Source of the DNA: Escherichia coli
Lineage (GTDB): Bacteria; Pseudomonadota; Gammaproteobacteria; Enterobacterales; Enterobacteriaceae
Assembly (NCBI RefSeq): GCF_022846255.1
Contig: NZ_AP025682.1
DNA: 64,000 nucleotides
Reading direction: 5' to 3' (one strand)
The notes beneath the pieces were generated by a model. The model ran no database searches. It was not told the origin of the DNA and saw nothing but the letters and a program-made list of their open reading frames with translations. Made by a program: the position numbers and the translations under genes. Shown here one piece after another: positions 50,917 to 52,227 of the stretch. The number at the start of each line of letters is the position of its first letter. Position 1 is the stretch's first letter.

Positions 50917-51447
50917 ATGGCTATCACTGGCATCTTTTTCGGCAGCGACACCGGTAATACCGAAAATATCGCAAAAATGATTCAAAAACAGCTTGGTAAA
51001 GACGTTGCCGATGTCCATGACATTGCAAAAAGCAGCAAAGAAGATCTGGAAGCTTATGACATTCTGCTGCTGGGCATCCCAACCTGGTATTACGGCGAAG
51101 CGCAGTGTGACTGGGATGACTTCTTCCCGACTCTCGAAGAGATTGATTTTAATGGTAAACTGGTTGCGCTGTTTGGTTGTGGCGACCAGGAAGATTACGC
51201 AGAATACTTCTGCGATGCATTGGGCACCATCCGCGACATCATTGAACCGCGCGGCGCAACTATCGTTGGTCACTGGTCAACTGCGGGCTACCACTTCGAA
51301 GCGTCAAAAGGTCTGGCTGATGATGACCACTTTGTCGGTCTGGCTATCGACGAAGATCGTCAGCCGGAACTGACCGCTGAACGTGTAGAAAAATGGGTTA
51401 AACAAATTTCTGAAGAGCTGCATCTCGACGAAATTCTCAATGCCTGA
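50917..51447 (+). CDS. fldA: Flavodoxin 1
   Basis: Start at [20 protein letters not shown]; 176 aa. Confidence 0.95.
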
Positions 51448-51652
51448 TGTGATGCGGCGTAGACTCATGTCTACGCCGTATTAATAGATAATGCCAATCA
51501 AAATAATTGCTACAAATTTGTAACTTTTGCTGTTGTACCTGTACAATGTCCCGGTGTTCAAGTGGCCTTGCCGTTGTAAATGTAAGCTGTGCCACGTTTT
51601 TATTAACAATATTTGCCAGGGACTTGTGGTTTTCATTTAGGCGTGGCAATTC

Positions 51653-51671
51653 TATAATGATACGCATTATC
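51653..51671 (+). promoter_or_regulatory. Fur box (autoregulation of uof-fur)
   Basis: tataatgatacgcattatc closely matches Fur consensus GATAATGATAATCATTATC. Confidence 0.65.
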
Positions 51672-51743
51672 TCAAGAGCAAATTCTGTCACTTCTTCTAA
51701 TGAAGTGAACCGCTTAGTAACAGGACAGATTCCGCATGACTGA
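51657..51743 (+). CDS. uof: Upstream-of-fur leader peptide Uof (28 aa), translationally coupled to fur
   Basis: Internal Met of track ORF 51507..51743: MIRIISRANSVTSSNEVNRLVTGQIPHD; overlaps fur start. Confidence 0.75.
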   Translation: MIRIISRANSVTSSNEVNRLVTGQIPHD

Positions 51744-52182
51744 TAACAATACCGCCCTAAAGAAAGCTGGCCTGAAAGTAACGCTTCCTCGTTTAAAAAT
51801 CCTGGAAGTTCTTCAGGAACCGGACAACCATCACGTCAGTGCGGAAGATTTATACAAACGTCTGATCGATATGGGTGAAGAAATTGGTCTGGCTACGGTA
51901 TATCGCGTACTGAACCAGTTTGACGACGCTGGTATCGTCACCCGCCACAATTTTGAAGGCGGTAAATCCGTATTTGAACTGACACAGCAACATCACCACG
52001 ATCACCTGATCTGCCTCGACTGCGGCAAGGTAATCGAATTTAGTGATGATTCCATCGAAGCGCGTCAGCGTGAAATTGCCGCAAAACATGGCATTCGCCT
52101 GACTAACCACAGTCTCTATCTTTACGGTCACTGTGCCGAAGGCGATTGCCGCGAAGATGAGCACGCGCACGAAGGCAAATAA
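51736..52182 (+). CDS. fur: Ferric uptake regulator
   Basis: 148-aa ORF, MTDNNTALKKAGLKVTLPRLKILEVL. Confidence 0.95.
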   Translation: MTDNNTALKKAGLKVTLPRLKILEVLQEPDNHHVSAEDLYKRLIDMGEEIGLATVYRVLNQFDDAGIVTRHNFEGGKSVFELTQQHHHDHLICLDCGKVIEFSDDSIEARQREIAAKHGIRLTNHSLYLYGHCAEGDCREDEHAHEGK

Positions 52183-52197
52183 GCCAGCCTGAACGAG

Positions 52198-52227
52198 AAA
52201 AGCCAACCTGCGGGTTGGCTTTTTTAT
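52198..52227. terminator. Bidirectional terminator between convergent fur and chiQ
   Basis: aaaagccaacc-tgcg-ggttggctttttt. Confidence 0.6.

Follow-up and report, generated by a model that had tools for sequence, protein, structure and literature searches.

The native fldA-uof-fur control region in an Escherichia coli chromosome segment: Fur box, upstream reading frame and comparison across the Enterobacterales

Genes and identity of the locus

The control region lies in a 64-kb stretch of Escherichia coli DNA, the whole of which is called the window here, and its genes are all on the plus strand: fldA, encoding flavodoxin 1 (50917-51447), the 28-codon upstream reading frame uof, or 'fur leader peptide' (51657-51743, stop included), and fur, encoding a protein of 148 aa (51736-52182, stop included). 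All three were found in the list of open reading frames. An earlier sequence-only reading had taken this to be the known arrangement with its regulatory sequence intact, and the alignment with K-12 that it proposed as a check bears this out: the region 51440-51800 has 100% identity with E. coli K-12 and with many other strains, and uof and fur are at the same positions. The RefSeq record of the K-12 strain AB1157 has fldA, uof ('fur leader peptide') and fur annotated beneath the match, and its feature coordinates map exactly onto those given above. The stretch 51440-51800 was found in 5424 of the 5426 complete E. coli genomes, and 5423 carry at least 80% of it; the identity is at least 99% in 5267 genomes and 95-99% in 157.

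The protein families agree with the annotation. The Fur protein scores 309 bits against the NCBIfam model NF006999 (cutoff 146) over residues 1-147 of 148, as a Fur protein should (NF006999 / Pfam PF01475), and the uof peptide matches NF011344, 'fur leader peptide', over its full length (1-28/28) with 85.2 bits, where the cutoff is 71. No Rfam family was found within 51400-51850, the sole matches being two chance miRNA hits with E above 2, and ryhB is absent from the 64-kb window. We conclude that this is the native E. coli locus, whose arrangement is already known at textbook level and annotated. The window is a normal segment of the E. coli chromosome, with the Fur feedback circuit in its wild-type sequence; the anatomy, the identity to K-12, the family membership and the conservation of each element are direct observations.

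The uof frame starts with ATG at 51657-51659, encodes MIRIISRANSVTSSNEVNRLVTGQIPHD and stops with TGA at 51741-51743. Since the fur ATG is at 51736, uof ends 8 nt into fur as the earlier reading had described, and the two genes share ATGACTGA (51736-51743), in which the fur start codon is followed by the uof stop. A 28-codon frame directly 5' of fur whose stop overlaps the fur start is the geometry of translational coupling, and coupling of fur translation to uof, also claimed in the earlier reading, has been described for this arrangement, together with a block of uof initiation and hence of Fur synthesis by RyhB (PMC7534054, PMC12683245). Descriptions of the coupling, the RyhB block of uof and Fur autoregulation are also given in PMC11448259, PMC6191717 and PMC7867234. 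The sixth uof codon is UCA (TCA, 51672-51674), an early serine codon of the kind that makes the decoding of uof dependent on MiaB (PMC11448259).

The uof-fur leader of E. coli K-12 was reportedly the subject of work by Vecerek, Moll and Blasi (2007, EMBO J 26:965). The locus here is that locus: it has the same nucleotides over 51440-51800, the same 28-codon frame, the overlap ATGACTGA, UCA as codon 6 and the same position 3' of fldA, and we found no difference. Among other known systems thrL and ivbL with GcvB are similar to uof in that a short upstream reading frame sets downstream expression and is the target of an Hfq-dependent sRNA (PMC7534054). The uof type differs from them in using termination and re-initiation across an overlapping stop and start rather than transcription attenuation, and no terminator follows uof.

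Two hairpins read from the sequence flank the region on the plus strand. The first, just 3' of the fldA stop (51456-51477), has the stem GGCGTAGAC-tcat-GTCTACGCC without a T-run, and in the alignment its stem is kept with other sequences in relatives (GGCGCAGCC/GACTGCGCC and GGCGCAACC/GGTTGCGCC). It is possibly a leaky terminator or a stabiliser. Co-transcription of fldA with uof-fur has been described (PMC4161252, PMC12683245), and this hairpin may set the amount of fldA transcription that enters uof-fur. The second, 3' of fur (52200-52225), resembles an intrinsic terminator, AAGCCAACC-tgcg-GGTTGGCTT followed by Ts; our simple scan did not call it.

Fur operator, promoters and transcript classes

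Of the 19 bp of the Fur box consensus GATAATGATAATCATTATC, the sequence TATAATGATACGCATTATC at 51653-51671 matches 16, the mismatches being at positions 1, 11 and 12, and the uof ATG occupies positions 5-7 of the box. The near-consensus Fur box across the uof start, claimed in the sequence-only reading, is therefore present. It is the same 19-bp box, on the -10 of the proximal fur promoter, as the operator of de Lorenzo et al. 1988, from whose consensus GATAATGATAATCATTATC it differs at the three mismatches, which fits the 'moderate' autoregulation in the literature. E. albertii, Salmonella and several Citrobacter have a box identical to it, and in other Enterobacteriaceae 13-15 of the 19 positions match the consensus.

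One could argue that an AT-rich promoter region produced this match by chance and that it has no operator function, given its three mismatches and the fact that its left end is merely a consensus -10 hexamer. However, it is the only match with at most three mismatches on both strands of the window (128 kb), while 0.02 matches would be expected in shuffled sequence and only 1 of 100 shuffles gave any match. In addition, the right half-site GCATTATC, which lies outside the -10, is kept in Escherichia, Salmonella, Citrobacter, Enterobacter and Pluralibacter, and moderate autoregulation of fur through this box has been reported (PMC7867234, PMC12683245). A chance match is hence very improbable in our view. 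Fur binding and autoregulation are reported in the literature, and in the DNA studied here 51653-51671 is a predicted operator. The fur gene is further described as activated by OxyR and by SoxRS, the latter via fldA (PMC7867234, PMC12683245).

The box covers core promoter elements. Our promoter scan gave a downstream promoter, Pfur, at 51630-51658 on the plus strand (TTTTCA-17-TATAAT, 10/12), and its -10 hexamer (51653-51658) lies under the Fur box. An overlap of the box with the -10 of Pfura, and fur start sites within uof, have been described (PMC7867234). The Pfur block GTTTTCATTT...TTCTATAATGA(G/T)ACGCATT is conserved in all the Enterobacteriaceae examined and recognisable in Serratia and Yersinia. 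The uof ATG itself is formed by the last three letters of TATAATG, i.e. the end of the Pfur -10 hexamer and the next base. By the usual spacing the Pfur start is expected near 51665, downstream of the uof ATG. Pfur transcripts would begin after the uof AUG and therefore could not translate uof, so that with the Pfur start sites inside uof only longer transcripts, from an upstream promoter at 51518-51547 or from fldA, would allow its translation.

The upstream site is sigma-70 promoter-like (51518-51547, plus strand, TTGTAA-18-TACAAT, 9/12 in the promoter scan) and has a TG directly 5' of the -10, as in an extended -10. In the alignment TTTGTAAC...TGTACAAT is nearly invariant across the Enterobacteriaceae and recognisable in Serratia and Yersinia. 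A uof promoter 5' of the fur promoters has been described (PMC7867234, PMC6191717), and we regard 51518-51547 as a candidate for this Puof, with a start expected near 51554; it would be the nearest source of transcripts that carry the uof AUG. Two transcript classes, from Puof and from Pfur, are known (PMC6191717, PMC4161252), the fur mRNA arising from a Pfur 'located within the uof ORF' and the longer uof-fur mRNA from Puof (PMC6191717). Just 5' of the upstream promoter, back to about 51480, we also observed a conserved block ATAGATAA..CAATC.AAAATAATTGCTACAAATTTGTAAC, and 51480-51547 is probably the upstream promoter region for uof, possibly an OxyR-dependent one.

The uof frame stays open for 150 nt further 5', back to 51507. 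Another in-frame ATG at 51546 again consists of a -10 hexamer plus G (TACAATG), and on fldA read-through transcripts it would give a 65-codon reading frame (51546-51743). This 5' extension is not conserved in E. albertii or in another E. coli lineage, where the frame is open for 106 and 175 nt only.

The Fur box and uof therefore occupy the same DNA, but their targets differ: the box represses Pfur, and the uof coupling and RyhB concern mRNAs that arise from elsewhere. The claim of a Fur box at the uof start thus holds for a DNA operator over the Pfur -10, but the box is not itself a control on uof translation.

Leader RNA, RyhB pairing and the proposed control scheme

Within uof, over codons 11-18, the RNA is predicted to form a hairpin UCACUUC-uucuaau-GAAGUGA (51688-51708, plus strand), which appears in both the MFE and the centroid folds and lies 48 to 28 nt 5' of the fur AUG. 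RNAalifold on the MAFFT alignment missed it, because the outgroups are misaligned around the hairpin, and found only an invariant GGA/UCC mini-stem. We therefore tested the hairpin as a named structure and also searched each sequence for hairpins against shuffles. In the 29-species alignment 81% of the cells are paired, compared to 38-48% when the partners are slid by 1-3 columns, and five of the seven pairs have changes on both sides. The covariation score is 0.232 vs 0.170 in shuffles, a value reached by 4 of 500 shuffles. Unrelated stems are found at the same distance from fur in sequences that the alignment misplaces, namely CGCUCA/UGAGCG in Cedecea, ACUCCC/GGGGGU in strain LSJC7, AGGCG/CGCCU in Serratia and AGGCU/AGCCU in Yersinia and Pectobacterium, each hairpin being matched by 0.3-13% of the shuffles of its own 40-nt zone. 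We regard the uof-internal hairpin as real, on the strength of folding and covariation models. The fold of the whole region is not unusually stable (z = 0.44), with no sign of a large structured leader.

The fur Shine-Dalgarno AGGA (51722-51725, plus strand) is part of a block ACAGGAC..CCGCATGAC that is invariant in 29 of 29 aligned species. Both the MFE fold and the consensus fold have its GGA paired to UCC (51731-51733). The predicted unpaired fraction of the Shine-Dalgarno is only 25-27% in short and long transcripts, and that of the fur AUG 76-94%. A paired Shine-Dalgarno agrees with, without proving, a need for upstream translation to open it. The dependence of fur translation on uof translation is reported in the literature, and the structure predicted for the locus here would support it. 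The Fur-box palindrome (51654-51670) has a counterpart in the long transcript as a weak predicted RNA hairpin, AUAAUG-auacg-CAUUAU, with the uof AUG inside it. This AUG is predicted to be 8% unpaired on the long transcript, and the Fur-box RNA hairpin could limit uof initiation independently of RyhB.

The RyhB pairing was less clear. The RyhB query sequence has a G44/C45 that agrees with PMC6191717. Its core (nt 37-57) forms a best duplex of -13.8 kcal/mol within 51540-51790, compared to a mean best value of -18 in random 250-nt stretches taken from the window as background. Two plausible sites include G44/C45, one of -11.0 kcal/mol at 51638-51653, just 5' of the uof AUG, and a second of -11.9 kcal/mol at 51675-51690, over uof codons 7-12. 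The RyhB-target duplexes (-11 to -14 kcal/mol) are thus weaker than the background mean. A search with full-length RyhB was rejected, as it gave unrealistic long-range pairings. The duplex energies neither confirm nor refute RyhB control of uof, and the published RyhB-uof model was found not to be recoverable by prediction programs (PMC3018821). It has also been reported that RyhB lowered the short fur mRNA and not the uof-fur mRNA (PMC6191717), a result that fits the simple uof/RyhB model imperfectly. Control by Fur and RyhB, as the earlier reading had it, is published for the identical sequence, but the RyhB pairing does not rise above background by duplex energy; RyhB control may be presumed here from the sequence identity with the experimentally tested allele.

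We are highly confident that this is a native, K-12-identical E. coli fldA-uof-fur control region in which three layers of control meet. At the DNA level iron-loaded Fur on 51653-51671 would cover the -10 of the proximal promoter (51653-51658), giving a modest negative autoregulation of fur. At the transcript level the proximal promoter would start a few bases 3' of the uof ATG and give mRNAs without the uof start, and mRNAs from the 51518-51547 promoter or from fldA/ybfE would contain the whole uof. On these long transcripts ribosomes would translate the 28-codon uof as far as its TGA, 8 nt into fur, and termination there would open the partly paired fur Shine-Dalgarno and allow re-initiation at the fur AUG, i.e. 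translational coupling. In low iron RyhB, which is itself Fur-repressed, would pair near the uof start and block uof translation and thus Fur synthesis. In addition, UCA at codon 6 would make uof decoding dependent on the iron-sulfur enzyme MiaB. Fur binding, the coupling and the RyhB and MiaB effects are taken from the literature; the exact start sites, which are second-hand, and the role of the internal hairpin we infer.

Variation of uof across the Enterobacterales

We collected 120 Enterobacterales loci using a degenerate DNA pattern for the Fur N-terminus. The promoters, the Fur box, the fur Shine-Dalgarno block and the covarying uof hairpin are conserved across the Enterobacterales. The overlap ATGACTGA is found in most of the 120 loci because fur begins with Met-Thr(ACT)-Asp. 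The uof frame is intact, with 28 or 29 codons ending at ATGACTGA, in Escherichia, most Citrobacter, the Enterobacter cloacae group, Leclercia, Kosakonia, Phytobacter, Pseudescherichia, Pluralibacter gergoviae, Pseudocitrobacter and some others. The frame is shifted or broken off in Salmonella enterica subsp. arizonae (locus L119), Citrobacter sp. Awk4, Klebsiella oxytoca, Cedecea, Mangrovibacter, Shimwellia and two Pluralibacter MAGs, and those of the 120 loci that come from Serratia, Yersinia, Pectobacterium, Pantoea and others have no uof; its absence in Y. enterocolitica has been noted before (PMC7867234). Overall, lengths that break the frame (75, 78, 74 and 65 nt) are no rarer than those that keep it (76 and 79 nt).

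For Salmonella enterica an exact-protein look-up of its common Fur gave six contigs (L122-L127) with one upstream sequence. Its Fur box and -10 are identical to those of E. coli, and it shares with E. coli the -35, the Shine-Dalgarno block and ATGACTGA at the fur start. The hairpin stem CACUUC/GAAGUG is also the same, and the frameshift, a 1-nt deletion, falls in the loop, which is one base shorter than in E. coli, leaving the stem intact. As a consequence of this missing base the ATG of TATAATG opens a 16-codon frame MIRIILSAISVTSLMK with its stop 28 nt 5' of the fur AUG. In this region (positions 500-612 of L122-L127) the frame does not overlap fur, and the E. coli-type coupling geometry is therefore absent there. 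The shorter loop and the 16-codon frame were noted for L119 of subsp. arizonae too.

Where the frame is kept, we compared 16 distinct sequences with the ATG at -79. The uof frame has no stop in any of them, and the other two frames have 3.6 and 1.8 stops per sequence. The variability by codon position is 0.43, 0.31 and 0.42 bits, so in this small sample of related sequences there is no third-position excess and no sign of selection at the amino-acid level. Such a stop-free frame would fit selection for being translated through and not for a particular peptide.

These data could also be explained if the overlap of the Fur box and the uof start were in essence a promoter and operator feature, the ATG existing since a -10 hexamer TATAAT precedes a G, with uof as a lineage-restricted by-product. 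The selected units would then be the promoters, the operator, the 5'-UTR hairpin and the Shine-Dalgarno block, and not a coupled leader peptide. That TATAATGA(G/T)ACGCA is kept without a uof reading frame in Cedecea, Mangrovibacter, Shimwellia, Klebsiella oxytoca, Serratia and Yersinia speaks for this, as do the identical Fur box of S. enterica with its shortened frame, the frequency of the frame-breaking lengths, the lack of a third-position excess, the covariation of the hairpin inside uof and the absence of uof in Y. enterocolitica. On the other side, coupling and RyhB control of uof have been shown experimentally in E. coli, according to several reviews, the uof reading frame hardly varies within E. 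coli, and all 16 of the distinct sequences are stop-free in this frame, with 1.8-3.6 stops per sequence in the other two. We consider this explanation rather unlikely, and it and the coupled uof are not mutually exclusive.

A related view that we give slightly less than an even chance is that the conserved unit 5' of fur consists of two tandem promoters, an operator on the proximal -10, a covarying hairpin about 30-50 nt 5' of the start codon and the invariant Shine-Dalgarno block, to which uof, with its peptide unselected, is added in certain lineages only, i.e. Escherichia, most Citrobacter, the Enterobacter cloacae group, Kosakonia and others. If this is true, the E. coli uof coupling and RyhB circuit would not transfer as such to Salmonella, and the hairpin would have an undescribed role, e.g. 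as a docking site for Hfq or an sRNA or as an mRNA stabiliser. The coupling is not universal for this region, as the frame is shifted in Salmonella and several genera. The uof-fur coupling is often cited as general; its defining geometry is missing in Salmonella enterica and several other enteric genera, which keep the promoter and operator and the RNA hairpin.

The MiaB-related codon varies as well. Codon 6 is CCA (Pro) in Enterobacter, Leclercia, Kosakonia and Phytobacter (loci L047, L025 and L106 were compared), which would restrict the iron-responsive decoding of uof to Escherichia, Citrobacter and Pseudescherichia. A further variation was observed in Enterobacter asburiae (locus L031), in which codon 2 of fur is ACA and not ACT, so that uof loses its overlapping TGA and stays open for more than 60 nt within fur.
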